This document shows, piece after piece, positions 15,216 through 37,369 of a stretch of 64,000 nucleotides of DNA (the first letter of the stretch is position 1; each line of letters opens with the position of its first letter). The notes beneath the pieces are model-generated. The model was not told the DNA's origin, made no database searches, and saw only the letters and a program-made list of their open reading frames with translations. This DNA is from Leptospiria bacterium (lineage in GTDB: Bacteria; Spirochaetota; Leptospiria; Turneriellales; CBDBES01), in contig OZ253494.1 in assembly GCA_965262015.1 (NCBI GenBank), positions 1,402,720 through 1,466,719 on the forward strand. Direction: 5' to 3'. Position numbers and translations under genes: made by a program.

Positions 15216-15245
15216 AACGGTGTTGGTTCTTGTACCAACACCGTT
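15216..15245. repeat. Perfect 12-bp-stem hairpin (AACGGTGTTGGT-TCTTGT-ACCAACACCGTT) inside the inter-IR segment
   Basis: I read it directly, and copies lie at 21346-21375 and 24217-24246. It is absent from the unit 2/3 junction. Confidence 0.8.
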
Positions 15246-15271
15246 ATTCATGTTGATTGATCCTGTAAAAT

Positions 15272-15505
15272 CGAGAAATTAGCATTTGCTCTGGACAGAA
15301 ATAGGCCTGGCTTAGCCTAGTATCTTTATCTCATAAAAGACAGCAGATTTTGATAGATTTATTTTATGAGCTATTTTTCAATAGCTCATATTCTCTAATA
15401 AATACTTCTGCATATTTTTATTAGTTATTCTCCTTATTTTTCATCTTTTTAAGAAAAACAGCTCATGAATACCTTAAACCGTCCAGGGTTGAACTAGCCT
15501 TTCAA
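15272..15505 (-). mobile_element. MITE-like IS30 derivative at the unit 1/2 boundary
   Basis: The right-end IR-like ...CTCTGGACAGAAATAGGCCTGGCTTAGCC is joined directly to the IS 5' region (GAGCTATTTTTCAATAGCTC...AAGAAAAACAGCTCATGAATACCTTAAACCGTCCAGGGTTGAACTAGCCTTTCAA). There is no transposase ORF. Confidence 0.6.
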
Positions 15506-15550
15506 CCAGTTACACAATTCTTGACCATACACATCTACTTAGGTGCATGG

Positions 15551-15583
15551 CTTCTAAATAGGCAGAGTATGCCTATTTAGAAG
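15551..15583 (+). promoter_or_regulatory. Conserved leader palindrome (14-bp stem) upstream of paralog 2
   Basis: The sequence is CTTCTAAATAGGCA-GAGTA-TGCCTATTTAGAAG. The outer stem pair C:G replaces the T:A of units 1 and 3, so both arms changed. Confidence 0.55.
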
Positions 15584-15591
15584 ATACAAAT

Positions 15592-18111
15592 ATGAAATAC
15601 ATAAAAAATATGAACACTACGTTAATGAATAGCGTCAATTGGCATGCAAGATGGTCATTAGTTATATGTGTTGGTCTTATGGTATTTATGATCTTTGGCG
15701 TATCTTTGTCTACAGGATGTTCTATCACCTTTCCAGGTAGAATAGTCAATCCCCCTCCCCTCCCCGATGTAGATTGCCCTACAGGTACGGCTCGCCTTGC
15801 AAATACTTCTAAAAAAACTACAGACACCTGCATGCTTGATGCTGATTCCGATGCTCCTGATGTAGATTGCCCTACGGGTATGGCTCGCCTTGCAAATGCT
15901 TCTAAAAAAACTACAGACACCTGCATGCCCGATACTGATGGTGACGGTACTCCTGATGTAACTTGTCTTATGGGCACCATTCGTTTGGCAGGTACTTCTA
16001 TAAATACTATGGACACTTGTGTCCCCGATGATGACGGCGATGGTATTCCTGATTCCATGGATGTAGATGCTGATGGTGATGGTTTGATAGAGATAAAAAC
16101 TGCTGAGATGCTAGATAACATGCGCTATGATTTGGCGGGAACAAGCTATAAGACTAAGGCTCAGGACTTAGCGGGTGAAGATGGTAATACAGATGGTTGC
16201 CCTGCTGTTGTTAGTAGCAGTGGAGATTGTAACGGCTACGAACTAACGGCCGACATTGATCTTTTGAGCTTGCTTGATGCAAATGGCAATGGGATGATTG
16301 ATACGACGATGGAGGGCATTGATAAAAATACTGACGGCGATACAACAGATGCAGGTGAGCAAATAACAGTTATTGATATAGGTACGGGCAAAGACAAAAG
16401 TTGGGTGCCCATTGGTACTACTGGCACGGAGAACAGCTTCACAGGCACTTTTGAAGGCAATAACCACACCATCGCTAACCTTTGGGTGAATATCTCTTCT
16501 TCTAGCTCTACTGTTTATGCGGGTTTGTTTGGTCTAGCGGGTGGCCCGAGCATTCGTAATGTGGGGGTTATTTCAGGTTCAATTCACGCTTTTTCTTCTG
16601 ATTCTTCTTCTGAGTCTTATTCAGGCGGTTTGGTGGGTTATTCTGGGAGTACTTTGAGTATTACGAATAGTTATTTTAGCGGTGGGGGTGGAGTTTCTTC
16701 TAATTCTTATTCTAATTCAGGCGGTTTGGTGGGTTATTCTGGGAGTACTTTGACAATAACGAATAGTTATTTTAGCGGTGCGGGTGGAGTTTCTTCTGCT
16801 TCTTCTTCAGGCGGTTTGGTGGGTTATTCTGGGAGTACTTTGAGTATTACGAATAGTTATTTTAGTGGTGTGGGTGGAGTTTCTGATTCTTCTGCTTTTC
16901 GTTCTTCTTCAGGCGGTTTGGTGGGTTATTCTGTGGGGAGTACTTTGAGTATTACGAATAGTTATTTTAGCGGTGGGGGTGGAGTTTCTTCTTCTACTTC
17001 TTCTAGTTCCTCTGAGTCTTATTCAGGCGGTTTGGTGGGTTATTCTAGAAGTACTTTGATAATAACGAATAGTTATTTTAGCGGTGGGGGTGGAGTTTCT
17101 ACTTCTTCTGCTTTTCGTTCTTCTTCAGGCGGTTTGGTGGGTTATTCTGAGAGTACTTTGAGTATTATGAATAGTTATTTTAGCGGTGTGGGTGGAGTTT
17201 CTTCTGATTCTTCTTCTTCTAATTCAGGCGGTTTGGTGGGTTATTCTGGGAGTACTTTGAGTATTACGAATAGTTATTTTAGCGGTGCGGGTGGAGTTTC
17301 TTCTGCTTCTTCTTCAGGTGGTTTGGTGGGTTATTCTGGGAGTACTTTGAGTATTACGAATAGTTATTTTAGTGGTGTGGGTGGAGTTTCTGATTCTTCT
17401 GCTTTTCGTTCTTCTTCAGGCGGTTTGGTGGGTTATTCTGGGAGTACTTTGAGTATTACGAATAGTTATTTTAGCGGTGGGGATGGAGTTTCTTCTAATT
17501 CTACTACTTCTTCTTCTAATTCAGGCGGTTTGGTGGGTTATTCTCAGAGTGGGAGTACTTTGATGATTATGAATAGTTATTTTAGCGGTGGGGGTGGAGT
17601 TTCTTCTAATTCTACTACTTCTTCTTCTAATTCAGGCGGTTTGGTGGGTTATTCTGTGGGGAGTACTTTGAGTATTACGAATAGTTATTTTAGCGGTGGG
17701 GGTGGAGTTTCTTCTAATTCTACTACTTCTTCTTCTAATTCAGGCGGTTTGGTGGGTTATTCTGTGAGTACTGTGAGTACTTTGACGATTACGAATAGTT
17801 ATTGGGACAACAGTGTGCCTCAAAGTGTAGATGGCTCTCCCCAAAGTCTGCGGGTCGTGGGTAGCTCTTCGACGAATCCAATGGGTGCAACTGGTCTCAC
17901 CTTAACGCAACTACAAGCTATCACTGTTAGCACTACAAGTGCCCCATCCCCATCTGGTTTGCCACATAGTGCCACTGATAATACCAAATCTTGGGACCTA
18001 GGCACCGCAAGCCAGCTACCTGCGGTTAAGTTATGCGTTAGCCCCACGGTTAGCAGCACCAACGTTGTAACATGTGCGTCATACGGTGCTCTGCTTGCCG
18101 GGCAACGATAG
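15592..18111 (+). CDS. Surface lipoprotein paralog 2: three Cys-loop/TSP3-like modules plus 12 GLUG-type repeats
   Basis: This 839-aa protein has the same signal peptide and LSTGC as paralog 1. It carries three (V/I)DCPTG.ARLAN.SKKTTDTC-type modules and 12 copies of GGLVGYS.STL.I.NSYFSG.GGVS with Ser-rich spacers. Confidence 0.85.
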   Translation: MKYIKNMNTTLMNSVNWHARWSLVICVGLMVFMIFGVSLSTGCSITFPGRIVNPPPLPDVDCPTGTARLANTSKKTTDTCMLDADSDAPDVDCPTGMARLANASKKTTDTCMPDTDGDGTPDVTCLMGTIRLAGTSINTMDTCVPDDDGDGIPDSMDVDADGDGLIEIKTAEMLDNMRYDLAGTSYKTKAQDLAGEDGNTDGCPAVVSSSGDCNGYELTADIDLLSLLDANGNGMIDTTMEGIDKNTDGDTTDAGEQITVIDIGTGKDKSWVPIGTTGTENSFTGTFEGNNHTIANLWVNISSSSSTVYAGLFGLAGGPSIRNVGVISGSIHAFSSDSSSESYSGGLVGYSGSTLSITNSYFSGGGGVSSNSYSNSGGLVGYSGSTLTITNSYFSGAGGVSSASSSGGLVGYSGSTLSITNSYFSGVGGVSDSSAFRSSSGGLVGYSVGSTLSITNSYFSGGGGVSSSTSSSSSESYSGGLVGYSRSTLIITNSYFSGGGGVSTSSAFRSSSGGLVGYSESTLSIMNSYFSGVGGVSSDSSSSNSGGLVGYSGSTLSITNSYFSGAGGVSSASSSGGLVGYSGSTLSITNSYFSGVGGVSDSSAFRSSSGGLVGYSGSTLSITNSYFSGGDGVSSNSTTSSSNSGGLVGYSQSGSTLMIMNSYFSGGGGVSSNSTTSSSNSGGLVGYSVGSTLSITNSYFSGGGGVSSNSTTSSSNSGGLVGYSVSTVSTLTITNSYWDNSVPQSVDGSPQSLRVVGSSSTNPMGATGLTLTQLQAITVSTTSAPSPSGLPHSATDNTKSWDLGTASQLPAVKLCVSPTVSSTNVVTCASYGALLAGQR
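16621..17805 (+). repeat. Intragenic near-identical 90-114-nt tandem repeats (12 units) with a 507-nt higher-order duplication
   Basis: The unit TCAGGCGGTTTGGTGGGTTATTCTGGGAGTACTTTGAGTATTACGAATAGTTATTTTAGCGGTG.GGGTGGAGTTTCT recurs. Repeats 2-3 (from 16717) recur almost base-for-base as repeats 7-8 (from 17224). Confidence 0.9.
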
Positions 18112-18125
18112 ACGACTGCCATCCA

Positions 18126-18229
18126 GTGATGCTCTACTCACTGGGCAAAGATAAGCATTGCCGACCGATAGTACTGAGTGATGCTCTATTCACTGGGCGA
18201 AGATAAGCACTGCCGACCGATAGTACTGA
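18126..18229 (+). repeat. 2 x 52-nt tandem copy of a stop-containing tail motif derived from the gene 3' terminus
   Basis: GTGATGCTCTAYTCACTGGGCRAAGATAAGCAYTGCCGACCGATAGTACTGA occurs twice here. Single copies lie in units 1, 3 and 4. It encodes SDAL(L/F)TG(Q/R)R*, compare the gene end YGALLAGQR*. Confidence 0.8.
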
Positions 18230-18407
18230 GGATAAAGTAACCAAAGGTGCTTGGAATTTTGGCACCCTTATGCAAATCCCTGCCCTTAAATACGCCGACT
18301 ATGACGGTACTGGTACTATATTCTATTGCAACAGTGTTATGTCTACACCTACAACTGGAATTCCTATTCCTAACTGTGGTGAATTCATCCCTGGACAGGG
18401 TCGGTAG
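18207..18407 (+). pseudogene. Truncated relic of the downstream C-terminal-domain module (unit 2)
   Basis: It reads ...STEDKVTKGAWNFGTLMQIPALKYADYDGTGTIFYCNSVMSTPTTGIPIPNCGEFIPGQGR*. It lacks the 208 nt present in units 1 and 4 between the direct repeats ACCAAAGG, and it has no usable start codon. Confidence 0.6.
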
Positions 18408-18470
18408 AAGGTGGTGAAAGAGATCATCACCTCCTGCTTAAGAATATATCTGCAGGGCTTTAAGAAATTA

Positions 18471-18702
18471 AGCATTAGAGCTGAACAGAGCCAAAACAAT
18501 AGACCTGGCTTAGCCTAGTATCTTTATCTCATACAGGACAGTAGATTTTGATAGATTGATTTTTTGAGCTATTTTTCAATAGCTCATATTCTCTAATAAA
18601 TACTTCTGTATATTTTGATAAGCTGTTCTTCCTGAATCTTATTATTTAAGAAAAACAGCTCATGAATACCTTAAAACATCCAGGGTTGAACTTGCCTTTC
18701 AA
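18471..18702 (-). mobile_element. MITE-like IS30 derivative at the unit 2/3 boundary (single IR copy, hairpin segment deleted)
   Basis: AGCATTAGAGCTGAACAGAGCCAAAACAATAGACCTGGCTTAGCCTAG is followed directly by the IS 5' region, ending ...CCAGGGTTGAACTTGCCTTTCAA. Confidence 0.6.
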
Positions 18703-18749
18703 CCAGTTACATAATTTCTTGACTATACACACCTACATCAGATTTATAT

Positions 18750-18784
18750 TTTTCTAAATAGGCAGAGCATGCCTATTTAGAAAA
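18750..18784 (+). promoter_or_regulatory. Conserved leader palindrome (15-bp stem) upstream of paralog 3
   Basis: The sequence TTTTCTAAATAGGCA-GAGCA-TGCCTATTTAGAAAA is identical to the unit 1 copy. Confidence 0.55.
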
Positions 18785-18791
18785 TACAAAT

Positions 18792-20936
18792 ATGAAATAC
18801 ATAAAAAATAAGAATACTACGTTAATGAATAGCGTCAATTGGCATCCAAGATGGTCATTAGTTATGTGTGTTGGTCTTATGGTATTTATGATCTTTGGCG
18901 TATCTTTGTCTACAGGATGTTCTATCACCTTTCCAGGTAGAATAGTCAATCCCCCTCCCCTCCCTGATATAGATTGCCCTACGGGTATGGCTCGCCTTGC
19001 AAATACTTCTAAAAAAATTACAGACACCTGCACGCTTGATGCCGATTCCATTAATACGGATGATGACGGCGATGGTATTCCTGATTCCATGGATGTAGAT
19101 GCTGATGGTGATGGTTTGATAGAGATAAAAAATGCCGTGATGCTAGATAACATGCGCCATGATCTATCGGGTACCAGCTATAAGACTAAGGCTCAGGACT
19201 TAGCGGGTGAAGATGGTAATACAGATGGTTGCCCTGCTGTTGTTAGTGGCAGTGGTGGTTGTAACGGCTACGAACTAACGGCCGATATTGATCTTTTGAG
19301 TTTGCTTGATGCCAACGGTAATGGGATGATCGATACGACGATGGAGGGCATTGATAAAAATGCTGACGGCGATACGACAGATGCAGGTGAGCAAATAACA
19401 GTTATTGATATAGGTACGGGAAAAGATAAAAGTTGGGTGCCCATTGGTACCGTTGGCACGGGGAAAAGCTTCACAGGCACTTTTGAAGGCAATAACCACA
19501 CCATCGCTAACCTTTGGATGAATAGCTCTAATGTCTATACGGGCTTATTTGGTGTAACGGGTGGCACGGTGGCCATTCGCAATGTGGGGGTTATTTCAGG
19601 TTTAATTCACGTTTCTTCTTCTAATTCTGGTTCAGGCGGTTTGGTGGGTTATTCTGGGAGTGGGAGTACTTTGACAATAACGAATAGTTATTTTAGTGGT
19701 GCGGGTGGAGTTTCTTCTCCTTATTCTGCTTCTTATTCAGGCGGTTTGGTGGGTTATTCTGGGAGTGGGAGTACTTTGACAATAACGAATAGTTATTTTA
19801 GTGGTGCGGGTGGAGTTTTTTCTGCTTCTGGTTCAGGCGGTTTGGTGGGTTATTCTGGGAGTACTTTGACAATAACGAATAGTTATTTTAGCGGTGGGGG
19901 TGGAGTTTCTTCTTCTAATTCTTCAGGCGGTTTGGTGGGTGTTTCTGAGAGTACTTTGACAATAACAAATAGTTATTTTAGCGGTGGGGGTGGAGTTTCT
20001 TCTGTTTCTTCTTCTTCTAATTCTTCAGGCGGTTTGGTGGGTTATTCTGGGAGTATGAGTACTTTGATAATAACGAATAGTTATTTTAGCGGTGGGGGTG
20101 GAGTTTCTTCCTCCTCTTCTTCTTATTCTTATTCAGGCGGTTTGGTGGGTTTTTCTGAGAGTACTTTGAGTATTACGAATAGTTATTTTAGCGGTGGGGG
20201 TGGAGTTTCTTCCTCCTCTTCTTCTTATTCTTATTCAGGCGGTTTGGTGGGTTTTTCTGGGAGTACTTTGAGTATTACGAATAGTTATTTTAGCGGTGGG
20301 GGTGGAGTTTCTTCCTCCTCTTCTTCTTCTGTTGCTACTGCTTCTTCTTCTTCAGGCGGTTTGGTGGGTTTTTCTGGGGGTACTTTGAGTATTGCGAATA
20401 GTTATTTTAGTGGTGAGGGTGGAGTTTCTACTACTACTTCTTCTTCTTCTTCTTATTCAGGCGGTTTGGTGGGTTATTCTGGGAGTACTTTGAGTATTAC
20501 GAATAGTTATTTTAGCGGTGGGGGTGGAGTTTCTTCCTCCTCTTCTTCTTCTTCTCATTCAGGCGGTTTGGTGGGTTCTTCTCAGAGTGGGAGTACTTTG
20601 ATGATTATGAATAGTTATTGGAACACAGACGCCCCTCAAAAAATAACTAATGGAATGACTGATCAAAGCCCAAAGCTGGCAGTGGGTAACTCTTCGACGA
20701 ATCGAATGGGTACAACTGGTCTCACCTTAACGCAACTACAAGCTATCACTGTTAGTACTACAAGTGCCCCATCCCCATCTGGTTTGCCACATAGTGCCAC
20801 TGATAATACCAAAGCTTGGGACCTAGGCACCGCAAGCCAGCTACCTGCGGTTAAGTTATGCGTTAGCCCCACGGTTAGCAGCACCAACGTTGTAACATGT
20901 GCATCATACGGTGCTCTGCTTGCCGGGCAACGATAG
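18792..20936 (+). CDS. Surface lipoprotein paralog 3: one Cys-loop/TSP3-like module plus 10 GLUG-type repeats
   Basis: This 714-aa protein has the same signal peptide and LSTGC. It carries 10 copies of GGLVG(Y/F/V/S)S..STL.I.NSYFSG.GGVS. Its C-terminal 90 aa are nearly identical to paralog 2. Confidence 0.85.
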   Translation: MKYIKNKNTTLMNSVNWHPRWSLVMCVGLMVFMIFGVSLSTGCSITFPGRIVNPPPLPDIDCPTGMARLANTSKKITDTCTLDADSINTDDDGDGIPDSMDVDADGDGLIEIKNAVMLDNMRHDLSGTSYKTKAQDLAGEDGNTDGCPAVVSGSGGCNGYELTADIDLLSLLDANGNGMIDTTMEGIDKNADGDTTDAGEQITVIDIGTGKDKSWVPIGTVGTGKSFTGTFEGNNHTIANLWMNSSNVYTGLFGVTGGTVAIRNVGVISGLIHVSSSNSGSGGLVGYSGSGSTLTITNSYFSGAGGVSSPYSASYSGGLVGYSGSGSTLTITNSYFSGAGGVFSASGSGGLVGYSGSTLTITNSYFSGGGGVSSSNSSGGLVGVSESTLTITNSYFSGGGGVSSVSSSSNSSGGLVGYSGSMSTLIITNSYFSGGGGVSSSSSSYSYSGGLVGFSESTLSITNSYFSGGGGVSSSSSSYSYSGGLVGFSGSTLSITNSYFSGGGGVSSSSSSSVATASSSSGGLVGFSGGTLSIANSYFSGEGGVSTTTSSSSSYSGGLVGYSGSTLSITNSYFSGGGGVSSSSSSSSHSGGLVGSSQSGSTLMIMNSYWNTDAPQKITNGMTDQSPKLAVGNSSTNRMGTTGLTLTQLQAITVSTTSAPSPSGLPHSATDNTKAWDLGTASQLPAVKLCVSPTVSSTNVVTCASYGALLAGQR
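19632..20622 (+). repeat. Intragenic near-identical tandem repeats (10 units) with (TCT)n-rich spacers
   Basis: The repeat consensus is the same as in paralog 2. Spacers contain TCTTCTTCTTCT... runs of variable length. Confidence 0.9.
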
Positions 20937-21000
20937 ACGACTGCCATCCAGTGATGCTCTACTCACTGGGCAAAGATAAGCATTGCCGACCGATAGTACT

Positions 21001-21197
21001 GAGGATAAAGTAACCAAAGGGCTTGGAGCTTTGTCACTGGTAAAATCCCTGCCCTTAAATACGCCGACTATGCAGACTATGACGGTACTGGTACTACATT
21101 CTATTGCAACAGTGTTATGTCTACACCTGCAACGGGAATGGGAATGCCCATGCCCATTCCTAACTGTGGTGAATTTATCCCTGGACAGGGTCGGTAG
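21001..21197 (+). pseudogene. Frameshifted relic of the downstream C-terminal-domain module (unit 3)
   Basis: The homologous frame reads ...IPALKYADYADYDGTGTTFYCNSVMSTPATGMGMPMPIPNCGEFIPGQGR*. A 4-nt length difference upstream breaks the frame, so the track ORF 20983-21207 is in a different frame. Confidence 0.55.
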
Positions 21198-21401
21198 AAG
21201 GTGGTGAAAGAGATCATCACCTTCTGCTTAAGAATATATCTGCAGGGCTTTAAGGAATTGAGCGTTAGAGCTGAACAGAGCCAAGAAAGGTAGACCTGGC
21301 TTAGCTATTATTTGCAAAATTTAGATTAGATTTTTATTTTCTTTTAACGGTGTTGGTTCTTGCACCAACACCGTTGTTCATGTTGATTGATCTTGTAAAA
21401 T

Positions 21402-21634
21402 CAAGAAATTAGCATTGGCTCTGGACAGAAATAGACCTGGCCTAACCTCGTATCTTTATCTCATAAAAGACAGCAGATTTTGGTATATGTATATATGAGC
21501 TATTTTTCAATAGCTCATATTCTCTAATAAATACTTCTGCATATTTTTATTAGTTATTCTCCTTATTTTTCATCTTTTTAAGAAAAACAGCTCATGAATA
21601 CCTTAAACCGTCCAGGGTTGAACTAGCCTTTCAA
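21402..21634 (-). mobile_element. MITE-like IS30 derivative at the unit 3/4 boundary
   Basis: It has the same architecture as 15272-15505, and an extra IR copy lies at about 21261-21305. Confidence 0.6.
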
Positions 21635-21679
21635 CCAGTTACACAATTCTTGACCATACACATCTACTTAGGTGCATGG

Positions 21680-21712
21680 CTTCTAAATAGGCAGAGTATG
21701 CCTATTTAGAAG
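21680..21712 (+). promoter_or_regulatory. Conserved leader palindrome (14-bp stem) upstream of paralog 4
   Basis: The sequence CTTCTAAATAGGCA-GAGTA-TGCCTATTTAGAAG is identical to the unit 2 copy. Confidence 0.55.
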
Positions 21713-21720
21713 ATACAAAT

Positions 21721-23616
21721 ATGAAATACATAAAAAATATGAACACTACGTTAATGAATAGCGTCAATTGGCATCCAAGATGGTCATTAGTTATGTGTGT
21801 TGGTCTTATGGTATTTATGATCTTTGGCGTATCTTTGTCTACAGGATGTTCTATCACCTTTCCAGGTAGAATAGTCAATCCCCCTCCCCTCCCCGATGTA
21901 GATTGCCCTACAGGTACGGCTCGCCTTGCAAATACTTCTAAAAAAACTACAGACACCTGCATGCTTGATGCCGATTCCGATGCTCCTGATGTAGATTGCC
22001 CTACGGGTATGGCTCGCCTTGCAAATGCTTCTAAAAAAACTACAGACACCTGCATGCCCGATACTGATGGTGACGGTACTCCTGATGTAACTTGTCTTAT
22101 GGGCACCATTCGTTTGGCAGGTACTTCTATAAATACTATGGACACTTGTGTCCCCGATGATGACGGCGATGGTATTCCTGATTCCATGGATGTAGATGCT
22201 GATGGTGATGGTTTGATAGAGATAAAAACTGCTGAGATGCTAGATAACATGCGCTATGATTTGGCGGGAACAAGCTATAAGACCTCGGCGACACAAACAA
22301 CAGGTAATACAGATGGTTGCCCTGCTGTTGGCAGTGGTGGTTGTAACGGCTACGAACTAACGGCCGATATTGATCTTTTGAGTTTGCTTGATGCCAACGG
22401 TAATGGGATGATCGATACGACGATGGAGGGCATTGATAAAAATGCTGACGGCGATACGACAGATGCAGGTGAGCAAATAACAGTTATTGATACTACTGCA
22501 GATACAAGCTGGATGCCTATTGGTGATAATTCGACAAATGATGACATAACTCGCTTCACAGGCACTTTTGAGGGCAACAACCACACCATCGCCAACCTCT
22601 GGGTGAATATTTCTTCTTCGGATAACGCCCATGCGGGTTTATTTGGCGTAACGGGTGGAACAACGGTGACCATTCGCAATGTGAGTGTCATTTCAGGCTC
22701 AATTCATTCTTCTGCTACTTCTGCTTCTGGTCAATCTAATGCAGGCGGTTTGGTGGGACTTTCTACTGCTTCTTTAATAATAAGTGATTGTACTTTTTCT
22801 GGATCGCTTGGGGTCTCTACTTCTAATAATGCTGGCGGTCTAGTGGGTGCGTCTGGTGCTCCTTTAATAATAAGCAATTGTACTTTTTTGGGGTCGGGTG
22901 ATATCTCTTCTTCTAATCAAAGTGGTTCTTCTGCTGGTGGTCTGGTGGGGTGGATTAGTTCTTCTTTGACAATCACTAATTCCATTTTTTCTGGGTCGGG
23001 TGATATCTCTGCTTCTGCTTCTAATGGTTCTACTCATTCTGGCGGTCTGGTGGGGTGGATGAGTTCTTCTTTGACAATCACTAATTGCATTTTTTCTGGG
23101 TCGGGTGATATCTCTGCTTCTTCTCCTTCTGCTTCTAATAGTTCTATTGTTGGCGGTTTGACTGGTCACGCTTACTCTACCTCTCCCGTTTCTTGGACAA
23201 TTACTAATTGCAGTTTCTTTGGCTCTGGTCAAATCTCTTCTATGGGTACTAATAGTTTTACTGTTGGCGGTTTGATTGGAACTACTAACAGTTCTTTGAC
23301 GATAAGAAACAGTTATTGGAACAAAGATGCCATCCAAAGAGTGGGTGGCTCTAACCAAAGCCCCAAGAGGGCGAAGGGTGACGCTTCTTCAGATCCATCT
23401 GGCACGATTGGCCTCACCTTAGTAGAACTGCAAGCTATTACTGGCATACACCCATCTGGTTTGCCACATAGTGCCACCGACAGCACCAAAGCTTGGGACC
23501 TAGGCACTGCAAGCCAGCTACCCGCTATTAAGCTGTGTATTCCCACCATCACAAGCGGTGTCACCGATTGGACGATGTGTGCGTCATACGGTGCTCTGCT
23601 TGCTGGGCAACGATAG
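21721..23616 (+). CDS. Surface lipoprotein paralog 4 (chimeric): three Cys-loop/TSP3-like modules plus 6 divergent GLUG-type repeats
   Basis: This 631-aa protein has a 5' part of about 470-560 nt almost identical to paralog 2. Its central region is of the paralog 1 type with a paralog 3 patch. It carries six GGL(V/T/I)G...I(S/T)N(C/S).F.GSG.IS repeats. Confidence 0.85.
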   Translation: MKYIKNMNTTLMNSVNWHPRWSLVMCVGLMVFMIFGVSLSTGCSITFPGRIVNPPPLPDVDCPTGTARLANTSKKTTDTCMLDADSDAPDVDCPTGMARLANASKKTTDTCMPDTDGDGTPDVTCLMGTIRLAGTSINTMDTCVPDDDGDGIPDSMDVDADGDGLIEIKTAEMLDNMRYDLAGTSYKTSATQTTGNTDGCPAVGSGGCNGYELTADIDLLSLLDANGNGMIDTTMEGIDKNADGDTTDAGEQITVIDTTADTSWMPIGDNSTNDDITRFTGTFEGNNHTIANLWVNISSSDNAHAGLFGVTGGTTVTIRNVSVISGSIHSSATSASGQSNAGGLVGLSTASLIISDCTFSGSLGVSTSNNAGGLVGASGAPLIISNCTFLGSGDISSSNQSGSSAGGLVGWISSSLTITNSIFSGSGDISASASNGSTHSGGLVGWMSSSLTITNCIFSGSGDISASSPSASNSSIVGGLTGHAYSTSPVSWTITNCSFFGSGQISSMGTNSFTVGGLIGTTNSSLTIRNSYWNKDAIQRVGGSNQSPKRAKGDASSDPSGTIGLTLVELQAITGIHPSGLPHSATDSTKAWDLGTASQLPAIKLCIPTITSGVTDWTMCASYGALLAGQR

Positions 23617-23701
23617 ACGACTGCCATCCAGTGATGCTCTACTCGCTGGGCGAAGATAAGCATTACCGACAATAGTACTGAGGATAAAGTAACCAAAGGG
23701 C

Positions 23702-24067
23702 TTGCTAGGATTAAAAGAAACTGGTGTTTCAGCACCCACGACAAGTTATGGATTCGGCACTGCAACTGGAGAAATGGATGGTGGATATGGTACCTCCATT
23801 CCATCAAGCATAGGTAGTGCAGGAACTGCAACGGAGCGTGCTGCTAAGTTGACGTCAAGCGACGTTGATGTATCATCGTGGAATGATGTTAGTCAAAACA
23901 CCAAAGGTGCTTGGAACTTCGGTACCCTTATGCAAATCCCTGCCCTTAAATACGCCGACTATGACGGTACTGGTACTATATTCTATTGCAACAGTGTTAT
24001 GTCTACACCTACAACTGGAATTCCTATTCCTAACTGTGGTGAATTCATCCCTGGACAGGCTAGGTAG
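23702..24067 (+). CDS. Hypothetical 121-aa C-terminal-domain-like ORF (identical copy of 14701-15066)
   Basis: The protein sequence in the track is identical to that of 14701-15066. Confidence 0.35.
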   Translation: MLGLKETGVSAPTTSYGFGTATGEMDGGYGTSIPSSIGSAGTATERAAKLTSSDVDVSSWNDVSQNTKGAWNFGTLMQIPALKYADYDGTGTIFYCNSVMSTPTTGIPIPNCGEFIPGQAR

Positions 24068-24272
24068 AAGGTGGTGAAAGAGATCATATCACCTTCTGCT
24101 TAAGAATATATCTGCAGGGCTTTAAGGAATTGAGCGTTAGAGCTGAACAGAGCCAAAACAATAGACCTGGCTTAGCTATTATTTGCAAAATTTAGATTAG
24201 ATTTTTATTTTCTTTTAACGGTGTTGGTTCTTGTACCAACACCGTTGTTCATGTTGATTGATCCTGTAAAAT

Positions 24273-24506
24273 CGAGAAATTAGCATTTGCTCTGGACAGA
24301 AATAGGCCTGGCTTAGCCTAGTATCTTTATCTCATACAGGACAGTAGATTTTGATAGATTGATTTTTTGAGCTATTTTTCTATAGCTTATATGTTCTAAT
24401 AAATCCTTCTGTATATTTTTATTGGCTGTTCTACTTATTTTTCATCTTTTTAAGAAAAACAGCTCATGAATACCTTAAACCGTCCAGGGTTGAACTGGCC
24501 TTTCCA
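24273..24506 (-). mobile_element. MITE-like IS30 derivative closing the array
   Basis: It has the same architecture as the other boundary elements but is more diverged (GAGCTATTTTTCTATAGCTTAT). It ends ...CCAGGGTTGAACTGGCCTTTCCA. No leader palindrome follows it. Confidence 0.55.
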
Positions 24507-24587: not shown

Positions 24588-25508
24588 ATGTATAAAGCTG
24601 TTGTATTTACGGGACAAGGTTCACAACGCCCTGGTATGGGTAAGGATTTCTATGAAAACTTCCCAAGGGCAAAGGAGATTTTTGATCAAGCATCTGAAAA
24701 TCTTGGAATTGATATTCCTGAGTTATGTTTTACAGAGAATACCCAAGTTAATCTTACTGAATATACCCAACCAAGTATTCTTACAGTAGAAATCGCCATA
24801 TATGAAGTTTTAAAACAACAATATAATTTTACGCCTGAATGGTTTGCCGGGCATAGCCTTGGTGAATATGGAGCTCTTTATGCAGCTGGTGTGCTTCCAT
24901 TCCCAGAAGTCATTTCTATTGTGCGTGAAAGAGGCAGACTCATGCAAAATGCTGTCCCAAAGGGTAAAGGTGCCATGTCTGCTTTAATTCGTGATAATAT
25001 TACAGAATTAGATTACGAGTCTGTTGTTTTGTCGACAGGTGCCGAGATCGCTAATTACAATTCTACTAATCAAGTTGTCATAAGTGGTTCTATGGAGTCT
25101 GTTACTCAGGCAAATGAGTTAATTCATTCACAATTTTCTGATGTAAGAGTTGTACCCCTTAATGTCAGTGCTCCCTTCCATTCAAGCTTAATGCAACCTA
25201 TTGAGGCAGAATTTAGTTCTTATCTTGAAGGGTTATCATCTACGTTTAACCTAGAAAAAAGTTGTAAGGTATTATCAAACTATACGGGAAAATTACATCA
25301 GCCTGAACTTATGATAAAAAATCTGGTTGCACAAATTAGTGGAAGTATCAGATGGATGCAAAACATGGAATATCTGGCAAAACATGCACAAGATATCTAT
25401 GAAATAGGGCCCAATCGTATTTTGACTGGTTTTTTTAACAGTATAGATGTTAAGGTTAGGGCCATTATTAACGTACGGGCTTTACGTAAAATATTTGAGG
25501 AGAACTAA
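24588..25508 (+). CDS. fabD: Malonyl-CoA:ACP transacylase
   Basis: The motifs FTGQGSQRPGMG, GHSLGEYGAL and APFHS are present. The ATG at 24588 lies one codon inside the track TTG start. Confidence 0.85.
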   Translation: MYKAVVFTGQGSQRPGMGKDFYENFPRAKEIFDQASENLGIDIPELCFTENTQVNLTEYTQPSILTVEIAIYEVLKQQYNFTPEWFAGHSLGEYGALYAAGVLPFPEVISIVRERGRLMQNAVPKGKGAMSALIRDNITELDYESVVLSTGAEIANYNSTNQVVISGSMESVTQANELIHSQFSDVRVVPLNVSAPFHSSLMQPIEAEFSSYLEGLSSTFNLEKSCKVLSNYTGKLHQPELMIKNLVAQISGSIRWMQNMEYLAKHAQDIYEIGPNRILTGFFNSIDVKVRAIINVRALRKIFEEN

Positions 25509-26443
25509 TGAGTTTTAAAAATAAATGGGCTTTAATTTTAGGTGGTTCTAGTGGGTTTGGTTTGCAAACAGCTAAAAAACTTAGTAGCCAGGGCATGAAT
25601 ATTTGTGTTGTACATCGTGATCGACGTGGTGCAATGGAAAGAATTAATAAAGAATTTCAAGAGATTCGTGATAATAAGGTAAAACTTATCTCCTATAATG
25701 AAAATGCTCTAGAGAAAGAAGTACAAGAAAAGATCTTAGATGATTTTACCAAACAAGTAGGGAAAGGTCAAATAGGTTTGCTCATGCACTCGATAGCATT
25801 AGGAAATTTAAAATTACTAGCCCCTAGAAAACAAACTATTTCACCTAATCAAATGGCCGTAGGAAAGCTAGCCGAAGCATTACAAATCTCTGAAAAACAA
25901 TTACAGACACAAATCAATACTCTTTTTGAACAAGGTCTGTATTCTTTCCATTCTTTATCAGAAAGTCCAGTGTATAATGATGAGTTATTGCTAGGTGATG
26001 AAGATATTGCAAATACTGCCTATGCTATGGGAACTAGTTTGATCACTTGGGTTCAAGAACTTTTTACAAGAGAATTATTTGCAGATTATGTACAAGTCGT
26101 TGGTTTAACTAGCGAAGGTAATGAAGTAGCATGGTTAGGATATGCAGCTGTTAGTATTGCAAAATGTGCATTAGAAGCTGCCTCACGAAGTATTGCAAGA
26201 GAGTTTGCTCCTTATGGCATTCGTTCAAATATTATTCAGGCAGGTGTTACTTACACACCCGCCTTACAATTTATACCAGGTAGCTCTCATATTGTAGCCA
26301 AAGCTTTTCTTTCTCAACCTGGCGGGCGTCTTACTCAACCATCTGATGTGGCCAATGTAATATCTTTGTTGTGTACACAAGAAGCCTACTGGATTAATGG
26401 TAGTTTAATTAAGGTGGACTGTGGAGAAAGTATTTCCAAGTAA
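25508..26443 (+). CDS. SDR-family enoyl-ACP reductase-like protein (FabI/FabL-like with a ~60-aa insertion)
   Basis: It has an N-terminal ILGGSSGFG nucleotide-binding loop. The Y-x6-K spacing in YAAVSIAKCALEAASRSIAREFAPYGIRSNIIQAG matches the enoyl reductase pattern rather than the classic Y-x3-K. The start overlaps the fabD stop (TAATG) and follows a GAGGAG SD. Confidence 0.55.
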   Translation: MSFKNKWALILGGSSGFGLQTAKKLSSQGMNICVVHRDRRGAMERINKEFQEIRDNKVKLISYNENALEKEVQEKILDDFTKQVGKGQIGLLMHSIALGNLKLLAPRKQTISPNQMAVGKLAEALQISEKQLQTQINTLFEQGLYSFHSLSESPVYNDELLLGDEDIANTAYAMGTSLITWVQELFTRELFADYVQVVGLTSEGNEVAWLGYAAVSIAKCALEAASRSIAREFAPYGIRSNIIQAGVTYTPALQFIPGSSHIVAKAFLSQPGGRLTQPSDVANVISLLCTQEAYWINGSLIKVDCGESISK

Positions 26444-26452
26444 GGGGGAGAT

Positions 26453-27187
26453 ATGCCAGATAAAGTAGCATTAGTTACAGGTGGTAGCGGTGCAATTGGT
26501 TTTGCATGTTGCCAAGCGTTATCAAACCTTGGTTTTAAGATAGTATTACACTATAAATCTTCTCAAGAAAAAGCGGAAAAATTGGCAAGCACCTTGCAAA
26601 ATGTTGAGTTATTGCAGGCTAATCTTGAACAAACAGATGATATAGATAAAGTTTATAATTATTTTAAAACAAGCCAATCAGGTAATATTGATGTACTTGT
26701 TAATAATGCTGGTATTGCCATTGATAATCCATTTTTTAGTGCAAGTCTAAAAGACTATGAAATGACAATGAATACAAACACACGAGCTACCTGGTACCTC
26801 ACAAAACGATTATCTCGTTTTATGATACGAAAAAAAGCAGGTAGAATTATTAATATTTCTAGCGTGATTGGCAGTATCCCTAATCCTACCCAATCTATTT
26901 ATTCAATGAGCAAGGCAGCTATTAATGCTTTTACAAGAACGGTTGCTTTAGAAATGGCACCCTATAATATTTTAGTTAACAGCGTTGCACCAGGTTTTAT
27001 TGAATCTGATATGACGGTAAATACGATCAAGGGTGAACATAAAGATATGGTGCTAAATAATATACCACTTCATCGAATAGGCCAGCCAGAAGAGGTTGCA
27101 CAATGTGTTGCTTTTTTATCCAATTCAGCAACATACTGTACAGGCAGTGTATTGCATGTCAATGGTGGCTTATTCTGTAATAGCTAG
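26453..27187 (+). CDS. fabG: 3-oxoacyl-ACP reductase
   Basis: The segments ALVTGGSGAIG, NNAG, and S...YSMSKAAINAFTRTVALEMAPYNILVNSVAPGFIESDM give the classic SDR Y-x3-K pattern. Confidence 0.85.
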   Translation: MPDKVALVTGGSGAIGFACCQALSNLGFKIVLHYKSSQEKAEKLASTLQNVELLQANLEQTDDIDKVYNYFKTSQSGNIDVLVNNAGIAIDNPFFSASLKDYEMTMNTNTRATWYLTKRLSRFMIRKKAGRIINISSVIGSIPNPTQSIYSMSKAAINAFTRTVALEMAPYNILVNSVAPGFIESDMTVNTIKGEHKDMVLNNIPLHRIGQPEEVAQCVAFLSNSATYCTGSVLHVNGGLFCNS

Positions 27188-27205
27188 GGAGATATATGCA
27201 TAGAC

Positions 27206-28498
27206 ATGAGTAATCTTGCACAAAATAATCGTAGAGTTGTAATCACTGGAATGGGTGTTATAACTTCTAATGGGCATGGTCTCAAAGAGTTTGAAAAATC
27301 ACTCCGTAATTCTATTAGTGGAATTCGTTTTGTAGATAAAATGGCCGAGCTTAATTTTCGTTGCCATGTTGCTGGAAAGATACAAAACTTAGAAGCTAAA
27401 CTCGGAGATTATTTTACTCCTGATGATCTGTTAGGCATGGATAAAGCAATGTGTTATACCAGTATGGCTGGTATGGATGCTTGGCGAGATGCTGGTTTGA
27501 TAATTGATCGTGATTCTAGCAAAGAAGCCCATTCAGATACTGGTTGTATTGTTGGTTGTGGCATAAGTGGTGTGGATGTCATGATTAATGAGCTTGCCCC
27601 TAAAGTAAATAGTGCTAAAATACGTCGCGCTGGATCAACACTCGTAGAGAGAATTATGGCCAGTGGACCTTCAGCTAAGTTAGGTGGCATATTGGGGATA
27701 GGTGGCCAATTAACTAGTAATAGCAGTGCTTGTACAACAGGTGTTGAGTCAGTTATAGATGGATTTTATAAAATTAAGTACGGTTTATTTGATAGGGCAT
27801 TAGTTGGCAGTGGAGAAAATGATTCTATCTATGTGCATGGTGCCTTTGATGCAATGAGGGTACTCAATTCAAATAATAATGATGCACCAGAGAAGGCATC
27901 TCGTCCTTTAAGCCAGAGTGCTGGTGGTTTTATCCCAGGTTCAGGTTCAGGCAGTTTATTTTTAGAAACGTTAGAAAGTGCTAAACAACGAAATGCTAGA
28001 ATCTATACTGAAATTATAGGGGCCTCTATCAATTGTGGTGGCCAGAGACAGGGGGGCTCCATGACAGCTCCCAACATGCATGCCGTACAAAAATGTATAC
28101 GAAGTGCAGTGGACTATGCCCAAATCAAAAGTACAGATATTGATTATATTAATGGTCATTTAACAGCAACCATGGCCGATCCATTTGAAATTAATAATTG
28201 GAAAGAGGCGTTGTCTCTAGAACCCTCTAATTTTCCCTATGTTAATTCTACAAAATCTTTAATTGGACATGCTCTTGGTGGGGCAGGTAGTATAGAATTA
28301 GTGGCTACTATTTTACAGATGCATAATTCCTTTATACACAAATCCCTTAACTGTGAAGATATACATGAAAAAATATTACCCTACGAAAAAAGTATTGTGC
28401 GAGAAACCAGAGAGCATAATATTAATATTGCAGCAAAAGCAAGCTTTGGCTTTGGTGATGTAAATGGTTGTGTTATCTTGAAAAAATGGGATGGTTAG
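27206..28498 (+). CDS. Beta-ketoacyl synthase (KAS I/II-type, divergent)
   Basis: It has RVVITGMGVITSNG, an active-site Cys in NSSACTTG, a His in NGHLTAT, and a second His in IGHALGGAGSIE. It is divergent from canonical FabF, which has HGTGT. Confidence 0.8.
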   Translation: MSNLAQNNRRVVITGMGVITSNGHGLKEFEKSLRNSISGIRFVDKMAELNFRCHVAGKIQNLEAKLGDYFTPDDLLGMDKAMCYTSMAGMDAWRDAGLIIDRDSSKEAHSDTGCIVGCGISGVDVMINELAPKVNSAKIRRAGSTLVERIMASGPSAKLGGILGIGGQLTSNSSACTTGVESVIDGFYKIKYGLFDRALVGSGENDSIYVHGAFDAMRVLNSNNNDAPEKASRPLSQSAGGFIPGSGSGSLFLETLESAKQRNARIYTEIIGASINCGGQRQGGSMTAPNMHAVQKCIRSAVDYAQIKSTDIDYINGHLTATMADPFEINNWKEALSLEPSNFPYVNSTKSLIGHALGGAGSIELVATILQMHNSFIHKSLNCEDIHEKILPYEKSIVRETREHNINIAAKASFGFGDVNGCVILKKWDG

Positions 28499-29219
28499 TA
28501 GGCGTTTTGTTGGTAATGATCTAGTCGATTTATCTGATACTGATACCCCATACAAAGTAGACGATATTCGTTATTGCCAGCGTATTTTTAACCAAGATGA
28601 ACGATTACAGATAGCGGATGCCACTGACCCCCATATAACATTATGGACTTTTTGGGCACTTAAAGAAGCTGCCTATAAAGCTTTAAAGCAGTATGATAAC
28701 AAAATAATATTTATACCTAAACAGTTGTATATATTGGTAAATAAATCTCTTGTTTGCTATAAAGATATGGCTATGCAATATCATATAGAACACATGCCAA
28801 ATCAATATATCCATGTTATTGTACAATTGAATAGGCCTGCATATAATAAGCAAGAAAACTGGTGGCCTGCATTACTTGTCATAGATACAATAGAAAATAT
28901 AAAATTACATATGAAAGGTATTAATGCCTTAGATAAATATACACATCTTTATCTAAGTGATTTTTTTATTAAAAAAAATATAGCTTTATTATTTGGTGAG
29001 TTAGTAAATGATATGCTAATTAAACGTGTTGCTCGTATCCCTCAGTTATTTTGGAAAGAGCCAAAAGGCACTGATCTTGTTTCCTCTAGCATATCTTTTT
29101 CTTTAAGTCATCACGGTATTTATATTAGTTTTGTAATTTTATTAAACTTATCTGGTACACACACTACGGTTGGAGAGTTAGCTATCGGTTCTGGACAAAA
29201 AGACCATACTTCTCTTTAA
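28491..29219 (+). CDS. 4'-phosphopantetheinyl transferase superfamily protein
   Basis: The N-terminal GNDLVDL and the segment WTFWALKEAAYKAL match PPTase motifs. The gene overlaps the KS gene by 8 nt. Confidence 0.55.
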   Translation: MVSRRFVGNDLVDLSDTDTPYKVDDIRYCQRIFNQDERLQIADATDPHITLWTFWALKEAAYKALKQYDNKIIFIPKQLYILVNKSLVCYKDMAMQYHIEHMPNQYIHVIVQLNRPAYNKQENWWPALLVIDTIENIKLHMKGINALDKYTHLYLSDFFIKKNIALLFGELVNDMLIKRVARIPQLFWKEPKGTDLVSSSISFSLSHHGIYISFVILLNLSGTHTTVGELAIGSGQKDHTSL

Positions 29220-29393: not shown

Positions 29394-29570
29394 ATGAAAG
29401 AGACTACACAATATAAATTTCTTAGTTGCCAAAAGTGTAATGCTATTGTAGATAAAGTGTACCAAAGTTTTTATTGTAAAAAATGTTTACTAAAATCATT
29501 TGAAAAATTAAGACCACTCCTGACTAAAGCACATGCTTTACAAGATACTAGTATAAACAAATCTGGTTAG
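29394..29570 (+). CDS. Small (58 aa) putative zinc-ribbon protein, below the ORF-track length cutoff
   Basis: My own translation is MKETTQYKFLSCQKCNAIVDKVYQSFYCKKCLLKSFEKLRPLLTKAHALQDTSINKSG. It contains two CxxC pairs 13 residues apart and ends 7 nt before ybaB. Confidence 0.35.
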   Translation: MKETTQYKFLSCQKCNAIVDKVYQSFYCKKCLLKSFEKLRPLLTKAHALQDTSINKSG

Positions 29571-36487: not shown

Positions 36488-37369
36488 TCAAAAATGGATT
36501 TTTTTTATCAGAGATAAGATAGCTTCATTTACAAACTTGGGGCTTTCGACTTGAGGCAAATGACCTATATCAGGTATGGTTGTGAATGTACTGTTACTTA
36601 ATTTGGAGTGTAGTTCATAACCAGATTGTATAGGCAAAACTCTGTCTTTTTCTCCCCATATAAGAGAGACTGGTATATAAATTTCTGGTAAAATAGTATT
36701 TAACATACTCCATTTTGTTAGATTTCTTGAGACACTAAAAAAGTTATCTAAAGCTATTTGATTTTCATAGAATGAGATAAGCTTTTCTTTAAAGTTTATT
36801 GTTTCGAGTGCTTTAAAAGATTTTTCAAAGGATAAGGAAAAAAATAGCCTAAGCATGTTTTTTATAGGCATCCACGGTGCTATCATTTGAGAAGCATTAA
36901 AAACCTTAGGCATTTTAGTAAATAAAATAGCCAGCCTTTTTAGAACTCCAAAATCAAGAGCAGAACGGCTAAGAGGAGCTATCAATATTGCACCATGGAT
37001 AATGTTAGATAGTGATACCAAGACACTTAATGCGACAGCTCCTCCTAATGAATTACCTACTACAATAATTTTTTTGAGTTTATTTTTTTGGATAAAGGCG
37101 GTAATGATAGTCTGGTAATACTTGGGTTCTAAAGTTACGTTGCTTTTACTTAAAGAGCCACCAAAACCAGGTAGATCTGGTGCAATTAAAAGGTATTTAT
37201 CTTGAAAATAGTCCCACTGATATTGCCATATCGTACTATCTAGAGCAAATGGATGTAAAAAAAGAATACAAGGCTGTTTTCTATTAAAGAGGTTTAAGTT
37301 AGGAATAGATTGTAAGTAGGTAATTTTCTGTTCACCAATATACATGGTTTTTTTGTACATATTTTTCAT
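36488..37369 (-). CDS. Alpha/beta-fold hydrolase
   Basis: It has the nucleophile elbow GNSLGG, ILFLHPF, and a C-terminal IGHLP. Confidence 0.7.
   Translation of the reverse strand: MKNMYKKTMYIGEQKITYLQSIPNLNLFNRKQPCILFLHPFALDSTIWQYQWDYFQDKYLLIAPDLPGFGGSLSKSNVTLEPKYYQTIITAFIQKNKLKKIIVVGNSLGGAVALSVLVSLSNIIHGAILIAPLSRSALDFGVLKRLAILFTKMPKVFNASQMIAPWMPIKNMLRLFFSLSFEKSFKALETINFKEKLISFYENQIALDNFFSVSRNLTKWSMLNTILPEIYIPVSLIWGEKDRVLPIQSGYELHSKLSNSTFTTIPDIGHLPQVESPKFVNEAILSLIKKIHF

Follow-up and report, generated by a model that had tools for sequence, protein, structure and literature searches.

The locus considered here lies at positions 24588–29219 of a 64,000-nt stretch of DNA from a Leptospiria bacterium (contig OZ253494.1; the whole stretch is referred to as the window), where five closely packed genes encode enzymes of a fatty acid synthase (FAS) of type II together with a phosphopantetheinyl transferase (PPTase). 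The question that it raises is what a synthase of this kind is for when its operon encodes no acyl carrier protein (ACP), dehydratase or FabH. An earlier account made from the letters alone (the sequence-only reading) had described an operon of non-canonical FAS-II type that has a PPTase of its own and had taken it for a specialised carrier-protein pathway. The description stands, although the operon is not idiosyncratic; it is a trimmed copy of a conserved module of 8–10 genes. The interpretation is partly right and needs recasting, since that module is a widespread and apparently undescribed second FAS, as far as full-text literature searches show. Together with an ACP gene at 55286, the operon may form a pared-down type II synthase of accessory function, which draws on a dehydratase encoded in trans and makes an acyl product, a reading to which we give about an even chance. 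All positions are those of the window, which is the part of this genome that was analysed.

The five genes and their carrier protein

The five open reading frames (ORFs) are intact and all lie on the + strand. They encode, in order, the malonyl-CoA:ACP transacylase FabD (24588–25508), a FabL-like enoyl-ACP reductase (ER; 25508–26443), a FabG-like 3-oxoacyl-ACP reductase (26453–27187), an elongating ketosynthase (KS; 27206–28498) and a module-specific PPTase (28491–29219). The fabD stop codon overlaps the ER start codon by one base (TAATG, 25506–25510), gaps of 9 nt and 18 nt precede the FabG-like and KS genes, respectively, and the KS and PPTase genes overlap by 8 nt. These genes, coordinates and junctions agree exactly with those of the sequence-only reading, and every motif that it quoted (NSSACTTG, NGHLTAT, IGHALGGAG, GNDLVDL and WALKEAAYKAL) is found in the translations. 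A six-frame profile search likewise upheld the absence of an ACP, a dehydratase and FabH from the operon. When the module-family profiles were run over all 64 kb with the HMMER filters switched off, no dehydratase, FabH or PlsC-like acyltransferase was found (best E-values 0.24 to 2.8), the dehydratase profile giving no signal in any frame (best E = 2.8).

Genes were assigned using the Pfam gathering cutoffs and the NCBIfam equivalog cutoffs. FabD matches PF00698 and marginally exceeds the equivalog cutoff of TIGR00128 (265.3 against 260.9); the motifs GQGSQ, GHSLGE and APFHS are present, and 66 of 69 family-invariant columns are kept. The FabG-like protein has the fold of a short-chain dehydrogenase/reductase (SDR; PF13561 and PF00106) with TGGSGAIG and S...YxxxK elements, and keeps 41 of 44 such columns, while its score against the FabG equivalog TIGR01830 stays below the cutoff (230.8 against 297.75).

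The second gene product had been read as an SDR with the Y-x6-K spacing of enoyl reductases and an insertion of ~60 aa, and both features are real. It matches adh_short_C2 and the Enoyl_reductase family PF12241 (32.5 bits, cutoff 22.1), and Y212-x6-K219 is invariant across the ER family. FabL is its best NCBIfam match and also the top entry in a PDB profile search, yet the score against the FabL equivalog NF005975 is 105.9, where the cutoff is 328. In an AlphaFold2 model built on a 65-sequence alignment (predicted local distance difference test, pLDDT, 93) the insertion, at approximately residues 100–160, forms three helices (113–125, 129–141 and 145–149), and the top Foldseek matches to this model are chains of B. 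subtilis FabL (3oid; E 1.4e-16, TM score 0.87 on the target). These comparisons point to a FabL-like enoyl reductase, which may or may not belong to the FabL type itself.

The KS is a member of the KAS I/II family (PF00109 and PF02801 at 91.2 and 88.5 bits, cutoff 20.8). Its catalytic triad (C176, H318 and H355) is invariant in the alignment, and 109 of 114 family-invariant columns are kept. Its scores reach neither the FabF equivalog (TIGR03150, 280.6 against 493.75) nor the FabB equivalog (NF005935, 248.2 against 630), and its best PDB sequence matches are FabB enzymes (~180 bits), slightly ahead of FabF (~167 bits). The most fitting description of the protein is that of a distinct KAS I/II clade, lying between FabB and FabF. 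It is the single FabB/F-like KS, there being no second KS-like ORF or chain-length factor (CLF) in the window. The polyketide synthase (PKS)-like character that had been proposed for the operon did not survive this comparison. Nothing in it is PKS-specific, and a PKS reading was rejected on account of the single KS, the conserved ER and the missing CLF, the operon holding a full reducing set minus the dehydratase. Type II PKS and aryl polyene (APE) systems are recognised by a KS/CLF pair, a starter-unit enzyme and the absence of an ER, a combination that is not found here.

The profile search bears out the earlier identification of the last gene product as a PPTase. It belongs to the superfamily PF01648 (33.8, cutoff 25) through residues 7–65 only, whereas its match to the module's PPTase profile (126 bits) spans the entire protein. 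Residues G8, N9, D10, D13, E37, W55, K58, E59 and K63 do not vary among 11 family members, and the conserved elements are GNDIVDL, RF..RVFT..E, LW.LWAAKEAAYK, F.P..F.V, VH..A, S..VR, I.R...PP and SLSHHGRF.A.A. The AcpS-like catalytic segment is N-terminal, with its motifs at residues 7–63; after it comes a long C-terminal part with SLSHHG at its end. The protein has 242 aa, compared with ~120–130 aa for the single domain of AcpS, and scores below the AcpS equivalog (TIGR00516, 17.6 against 59.8). An exhaustive HMMER search gave 1398 representative relatives at E ≤ 0.001, mostly of 180–250 aa and matching at their N-termini; a word-prefiltered homologue search, which such divergent relatives escape, returned the query alone, and the PDB gave no sequence match.

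Some tentative indication of how this PPTase is built comes from hhalign, with AcpS and Sfp reference sequences that were entered by hand. Residues 7–65 pair with AcpS 5–64 (91–96% probability) and residues 22–91 with the catalytic C-terminal half of Sfp (72%), whereas residues 157–223 pair both with B. subtilis AcpS 53–121 (87%) and with Sfp 50–99, the N-terminal half of that enzyme (83%). The segment resembling Sfp 50–99 spans residues 159–216, and the catalytic motifs do not lie in a C-terminal lobe, as they do in Sfp-type enzymes. A protein of Sfp size with its catalytic segment first would have either lobes that are reversed relative to Sfp or an AcpS fold that is split by an insert of ~90 aa; a single-sequence structure model (pLDDT 32) is unusable for the lobe order. 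The ER insertion and the extended PPTase had both been listed as peculiarities of this operon. They are present, but they are not local oddities, as both are traits of the wider family.

The sequence-only reading had also guessed that an ACP at 55286 might be the partner of the operon, and the guess was right, because this ORF belongs to the module ACP family. The gene (55286–55534, + strand) lies 26 kb downstream of the operon and encodes an 82-aa protein, the sole ACP found by the six-frame search of the window (95.9 bits with the module ACP profile). It aligns with the in-cluster ACPs of related loci (DLHVNSARIVDIILAIEDEFDIEIGD beside ELEVNSSRLVDIIIAFEDEFDIEVGD), shares 44% identity with that of Leptospira sp. 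GIMC2001, and keeps 13 of 17 invariant columns. PF00550 is narrowly matched (21.1, cutoff 20.8) and the AcpP equivalog TIGR00517 is not (45.6, cutoff 70.45), the motif being VNSAR and not DSLD. The gene is single, flanked by exbD and metH, and an AGAGAGG Shine–Dalgarno-like sequence is located 6 nt upstream of its ATG.

A widespread module and its trimmed copy

The module was defined here from approximately 165–170 loci, nine to ten reference proteins being mapped by tblastn, and the gene counts below are taken from the 74 loci with full flanks. Membership of the window operon is evident from the scores of its proteins against the module profiles (KS 672 bits, ER 414, FabD 455 and FabG 260, the last with a combined ER/FabG profile). 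A scan of one genome per GTDB species gave at least 577 module loci in about ten phyla, each encoding a relative of the ER. The carriers are Leptospirales, Spirochaetia, Oligoflexia, Bdellovibrionota, one Halobacteriovorax marinus isolate, Marinicella (three cultured strains), Coxiellaceae, Calditrichota, KSB1, Marinimicrobia, Gemmatimonadota, Acidobacteriota, Myxococcota and Desulfobacterota. Relatives of the KS number in the thousands; the best 120 have 54–62% identity, and those named among them come from Spirochaetia, Leptospirales, Oligoflexia, gamma- and deltaproteobacterial metagenome-assembled genomes (MAGs) and Leptospira sp. GIMC2001. Across these groups the KS and ER homologues share 54–67% identity. 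No ER copy was found on the plasmids of PLSDB.

The usual gene order is (FabD)-ER-(FabH)-FabA-(FabG)-FabZ-KS-ACP-acyltransferase-PPTase, with 8–10 genes in all. FabZ and ACP each lie near the KS on the same strand in 72 of the 74 loci, followed by the acyltransferase (65), ER (64), FabA (62), PPTase (61), FabD (50), FabG (47) and FabH (43). In Leptospira sp. GIMC2001 the order is FabD, ER, FabA, FabG, FabZ, KS, an 81-aa ACP, a PlsC-like acyltransferase (PF01553) and PPTase, and the FabA passes NF003509 (186 against 124) and fails TIGR01749 (145.5 against 238.15). Many other phyla have a FabH-like KAS III between the ER and FabA. When the flanking ORFs were clustered all against all, no further conserved neighbour emerged, and the module is therefore a self-contained unit that occurs in unrelated genomic contexts. 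At other loci FabG, FabD, the acyltransferase or the two dehydratases are missing in cis, from which it follows that the module routinely depends on enzymes in trans.

One variant has a type III PKS in a T3PKS-ER-FabZ-KS-ACP-PPTase arrangement. It is found in four metagenome loci (L123, L129, L153 and L157) and, with the ER not seen, in a fifth (L165). The type III PKSs of these five loci are DpgA-like and 78–83% identical to each other, which suggests that in this variant a dedicated acyl-ACP may feed a phenolic-lipid-type product. Two further arrangements were observed. On one 30-kb metagenome scaffold (L169/L170) a unit of FabD, ER, KS, ACP, acyltransferase (AT) and PPTase (PPT) occurs twice in tandem with the same KS, through either duplication or an assembly artefact. 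In L013 and L014 two divergent KS genes stand in tandem within the module; these loci, from a single cave study, are nearly identical although one is labelled as a Turneriella parva MAG and the other as a Caldithrix MAG, so that one of the two may have been binned wrongly.

What emerges is a family and not a single odd operon: a portable second FAS with its own ACP, an unusually built PPTase and a FabL-like ER with a helical insert, to which FabA, a FabB-like KS and a lipid acyltransferase are usually added, in hundreds of species of about ten phyla. FabA and a FabB-like KS make up the classical oxygen-independent route to unsaturated fatty acids, which is generally regarded as confined to Proteobacteria. 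If the module works as proposed, the occurrence of a FabA/FabB-like pair in Leptospirales, Bdellovibrionota, Gemmatimonadota and Acidobacteriota would be of interest to lipid biochemists.

The window operon is reduced relative to this pattern, having neither a linked acceptor enzyme nor an ACP in cis, where 65 of the 74 full loci have an acyltransferase and 72 an ACP. Its closest relative (L082; 67% identity in the ER and ~66% at the DNA level) has the same direct FabG-to-KS junction without FabZ, and the FabD-ER-KS-ACP-AT-PPT units of L169/L170, from another lineage, have no FabG-type reductase and likewise no dehydratase in cis. The missing dehydratase is thus not an accident of one assembly. 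A neighbour-joining tree of the KS places the window in one group with L083 (ACP-FabD-ER-FabG-FabZ-KS-PPT) and L002, a Leptospiria MAG whose genes are arranged as FabD-ER-FabG-FabZ-KS-PPT-ACP-AT.

Such reduction could be taken as the sign of a decaying, non-working remnant, left behind by the loss of the dehydratases, the acyltransferase and the in-cis ACP. The architecture is the most reduced that was seen, being the sole one of the 74 full loci without a dehydratase in cis; the window occupies the longest branch of the KS tree, and its proteins keep 92–96% of the columns whose conservation across the family is 95% or more, where the family median is 98–100%. However, the five ORFs and the ACP are full length, their catalytic residues are intact and the translational coupling between the genes is retained. 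Furthermore, the FabZ-less junction is kept in a second organism at ~66% DNA identity and 67% ER identity, which argues for long-term purifying selection. A non-working remnant is on this evidence very improbable. If the operon is indeed a working accessory synthase, it would show that selection can act on the module even when it has been cut down to the KS, ketoreductase (KR), ER, FabD and PPTase and its ACP gene lies at another place.

Accessory or main synthase, and the biotin link

Judged from the enzyme families, the proposed synthase would operate as follows. The dedicated PPTase would convert the module's own apo-ACP to holo-ACP, onto which FabD would load malonate. The FabB/F-like KS would elongate the chain and probably also start chains by decarboxylation of malonyl-ACP, like some FabB enzymes. 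The 3-keto group would be reduced by the FabG-like enzyme, water removed by a dehydratase encoded elsewhere (either the housekeeping FabZ or a relocated module FabZ) and the double bond saturated by the FabL-like reductase. In most relatives the acyl-ACP would then pass to the PlsC-like acyltransferase of the module, and in some to the type III PKS; in the window organism the acceptor would be one that is not linked to the operon.

The same reactions would be needed if the module were the main housekeeping synthase, having replaced the canonical fab genes, with FabZ and PlsC encoded elsewhere and the PPTase acting as AcpS. A separate dehydratase gene has a precedent in E. coli, where fabZ is encoded outside the main fab cluster. 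L083 and L167 carry FabD, KS, KR, dehydratase, ER, ACP and PPTase exactly once each, and the module of L167 has birA-bioA-bioD-bioF-bioB and a fused carboxylase (described below) as immediate neighbours, which together would form a malonyl-CoA supply chain. The source contig of the window is only 1.92 Mb, leaving less room for two synthases, and the contigs of the FabA-less spirochaete versions are likewise small (1.3–2.1 Mb). Between the biotin-linked and the other clades there is no clade-specific change in the KS, ER or FabD, and the product is therefore probably an ordinary acyl chain. The lack of FabH would also be no obstacle, as one published study describes FabB-type enzymes that can initiate synthesis without it (PMC10869286).

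Set against a housekeeping role are the scores of the proteins themselves. FabD alone passes its equivalog cutoff, whereas the KS, FabG-like protein, ACP and PPTase fall well below those for FabF, FabG, AcpP and AcpS. The metagenome contig of L165 calibrates these cutoffs and shows coexistence at the same time, since its module variant (type III PKS-FabZ-KS-ACP-PPTase) lies 6 kb from canonical acpP, fabF and rnc genes, and the canonical acpP (112.9 against 70.45, with DSLD) and fabF (597 against 493.75) pass easily. The module is also present in Marinicella, Coxiellaceae, Myxococcota and Leptospira, which we take to carry canonical fab genes. The module ACP has also changed more quickly than its KS, with identities of 43% and 59%, respectively, when the window is compared with L002; for a hub AcpP the opposite would be expected. 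Finally, operons without FabG, FabD or the dehydratases speak for an accessory role, since they imply a supply of these enzymes in trans. A housekeeping function for the module is accordingly regarded as unlikely, if still deserving of serious attention.

The preferred reading, that of an accessory synthase, has points of its own to contend with. Among the 74 full loci, where FabZ is otherwise so regular (72 of 74), only the window has no dehydratase in cis, and with its acceptor unlinked the output of the operon could differ from that of the full module. For this 1.92-Mb genome accessory status is an extrapolation, and the FabA-less spirochaete loci, with each synthase function exactly once and biotin or carboxylase genes beside them, would fit a main synthase too. 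Full-text literature searches, moreover, found no description of the module. All of these weigh against the accessory synthase.

The biotin link concerns five related loci, all without FabA, that adjoin late biotin genes. L083 has no acyltransferase, and its genes PPT-bioB-bioF-bioD run in the same direction with stop and start codons that overlap. In L005 and L010 a birA-bioA-bioD-bioF-bioB set is convergent with the module, as it is in L167, which again lacks the acyltransferase; L168 has birA-bioA-bioD-bioF, also convergent, without bioB. L167 is located on a spirochaete-like contig of 2.13 Mb, where a single ORF of more than 1758 aa (17124–21284 of that locus), beside bioB and the module, fuses biotin carboxylase, biotinyl carrier and carboxyltransferase domains. 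No known pimelate gene is in view at any of the five loci, and apart from a generic ABC-type family in L167 and L168 they have no other flanking gene in common.

This arrangement raises the idea that in a FabA-less spirochaete subclade, to which the window belongs, the module makes pimeloyl-ACP for biotin from a malonyl primer by two rounds of elongation. The FabB-like KS would accept first a malonyl and then a glutaryl thioester with a free omega-carboxylate, and two rounds on the module's own ACP would deliver pimeloyl-ACP to BioF; we consider this mechanism, and the role that it implies, improbable. Were it correct, it would represent a new pimelate route that needs no BioC/BioH, BioZ, BioI, BioW or BioE, and the recurrent biotin linkage in small-genome spirochaetes would point to a candidate pimelate source for bacteria that have none of the known routes. 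It would also explain why the module stands beside bioB/F/D/A-birA in at least three differently arranged locus sets when nearly all other synteny has decayed. Besides the linkage at five loci with no known pimelate gene in view and the overlapping co-directional genes of L083, it is consistent with the absence of the acyltransferase from L083 and L167, as from the window, what remains being exactly the needs of two reductive elongation rounds.

The window itself has no biotin genes anywhere, and no methyltransferase or esterase is linked. Its sole alpha/beta hydrolase (36488–37369) was rejected as a candidate BioH with a score of 52 against a cutoff of 207. A lipid-type acyltransferase is kept in three of the five biotin-linked loci, and the KS, ER and FabD contain no clade-specific substitutions that would fit an omega-carboxy substrate, the KS showing a single A-to-Q change. 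The ~140 loci of other phyla are all without a biotin link. Biotin that serves the carboxylase making malonyl-CoA for a synthase would account for the linkage just as well. Because of the retained acyltransferases, the absence of clade-specific substitutions and the lack of a link in other phyla, a supply chain that would run from biotin through the carboxylase and malonyl-CoA to the synthase is favoured over pimeloyl-ACP synthesis as the meaning of the biotin linkage. A separate observation is that an Acidobacteria MAG (L070, 6080–7114) encodes a BioF-like alpha-oxoamine synthase 3 kb upstream of the module; it has 25% identity to BioF and could be of the serine palmitoyltransferase type.

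Genomic surroundings and comparison with known systems

Upstream of the operon there are four paralogous predicted lipoprotein genes (12735–14615, 15592–18111, 18792–20936 and 21721–23616). Their products, of 626–839 aa, are almost identical at the N-terminus and share a lipobox (LSTGC), stretches rich in aspartate that resemble calcium-binding sequences, and GGLVG...ITNSYFSG repeats in variable number. The array (12735–24363) consists of four tandem units of ~3 kb with a GC content of ~43%, compared with ~32% in the rest of the window, and looks like a variable surface-protein family. Long antisense ORFs accompany it, as does an identical 121-aa ORF at 14701–15066 and 23702–24067. The last copy of the 202-nt spacer repeat of the array lies at 24162–24363 and contains a terminator-like hairpin with a 13-bp stem (24216–24247, + strand), from which it follows that the array ends before the fab operon.

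The adjacency of operon and array that the sequence-only reading pointed out is real, the last lipoprotein gene ending at 23616 and fabD starting at 24588. Its suggestion that the operon takes part in lipid modification of surface lipoproteins fared less well. That the operon supplies acyl groups for the neighbouring lipoproteins is hardly credible, as adjacency is all that speaks for it, while the terminator-like hairpin in the terminal spacer separates the two and none of the ~170 related loci has such neighbours. Bacterial lipoprotein acylation, in addition, uses phospholipid donors by way of Lgt and Lnt.

On the 3' side of the operon are ybaB, recR, a GT2 glycosyltransferase gene and a gene for a medium-chain dehydrogenase/reductase (MDR)-type dehydrogenase. 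A 58-aa zinc-ribbon-like ORF with two CxxC pairs (MKETTQYKFLSCQKCNAIVDKVYQSFYCKKC..., 29394–29570) is located in the 358-nt interval that separates ybaB from the PPTase gene. The remaining window is of an ordinary housekeeping nature, with flagellar hook genes, chorismate synthase, nadB, purF, fmt, cmk, rpsA, fumarase, metH, pyrG and ilvD. A 414-aa ORF on the − strand (50516–51760) weakly matches a Leptospira model of the LIC11270 surface-protein family (95 bits, cutoff 490), which fits a distant leptospiral affiliation. Scans of the window for tRNAs and Rfam families gave no matches, and promoter-like sites are no more frequent in it than in shuffled sequence.

In comparison with the canonical type II FAS of E. 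coli (plsX-fabH-fabD-fabG-acpP-fabF, with fabA, fabB, fabZ, fabI and acpS) the window operon draws on the same enzyme families. It shares the Cys-His-His triad of the KS, the GHSLGE motif of FabD, the Ser-Tyr-Lys residues of the SDRs and the Y-x6-K of the ER, and its dehydratase would be encoded outside the operon as in E. coli. The differences lie in the gene order; in the KS, FabG, ACP and PPTase, which are well below the equivalog cutoffs; in the VNS(A/S)R motif of the module ACPs, where AcpP has DSLD; in the FabL-like ER with its three-helix insertion; in a PPTase of 180–250 aa as opposed to ~125 aa; and in the module relatives, which hold FabA, FabH and a PlsC-like acyltransferase in one operon. 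The PPTase has PF01648, the GxD and (W/F)xxKEAxxK motifs and a conserved SxSH strand in common with AcpS- and Sfp-type enzymes. It departs from both in combining AcpS-like motifs within its first 65 residues with the size of Sfp and a last segment like the N-terminal half of Sfp.

The BioC/BioH, BioZ, BioI, BioW and BioE routes resemble the idea of a pimelate-producing module in the use of fatty-acid-synthase chemistry, and five module relatives do lie beside bioF/A/D/B. Unlike these routes the module has no linked methyltransferase, esterase, BioZ-like KAS III, P450 or ligase, so that the likeness is one of neighbourhood. With Azotobacter ArsABCD and other phenolic-lipid systems in which a synthase is joined to a type III PKS, one sub-variant of the module shares the coupling of an acyl-ACP generator to such an enzyme; the window has no type III PKS, and ArsA is a type I synthase.

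The Pfa polyunsaturated fatty-acid synthases with PfaE similarly make lipids as a second synthase alongside the housekeeping system and have their own PPTase. They also use FabA-like dehydratases and pass the product directly to an acyltransferase (an AGPAT domain in myxobacterial Pfa). They differ in being large multidomain type I proteins with tandem ACPs, whereas the module is made of separate small proteins. A parallel in logic is the rhizobial acpXL-fabZXL-fabF2XL-fabF1XL-adhA2XL-lpxXL operon, which makes the very-long-chain fatty acid of lipid A and operates beside the housekeeping enzymes. There, too, a single operon provides an accessory synthase with an ACP, KS and dehydratase of its own and a dedicated acyltransferase. 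The acpXL system has, however, a split KS pair, and a transferase of the LpxXL family and not of PF01553, and it lacks an ER, FabD and a PPTase; membership at the sequence level was not found, and it was rejected as an identity for the module.

Finally, the APE and flexirubin clusters are alike in having a discrete KS, ACP and KR, two FabA-fold dehydratases and an enzyme of the lysophospholipid-acyltransferase type, and the dehydratases of the module relatives show ApeI-like and ApeP-like matches in precomputed Pfam annotations. APE clusters have no ER, and they contain KS/CLF pairs together with an enzyme for the aryl starter and genes for export. The module, in contrast, has a conserved ER, a single KS, FabD and a PPTase, and should therefore make a saturated or mono-unsaturated chain.

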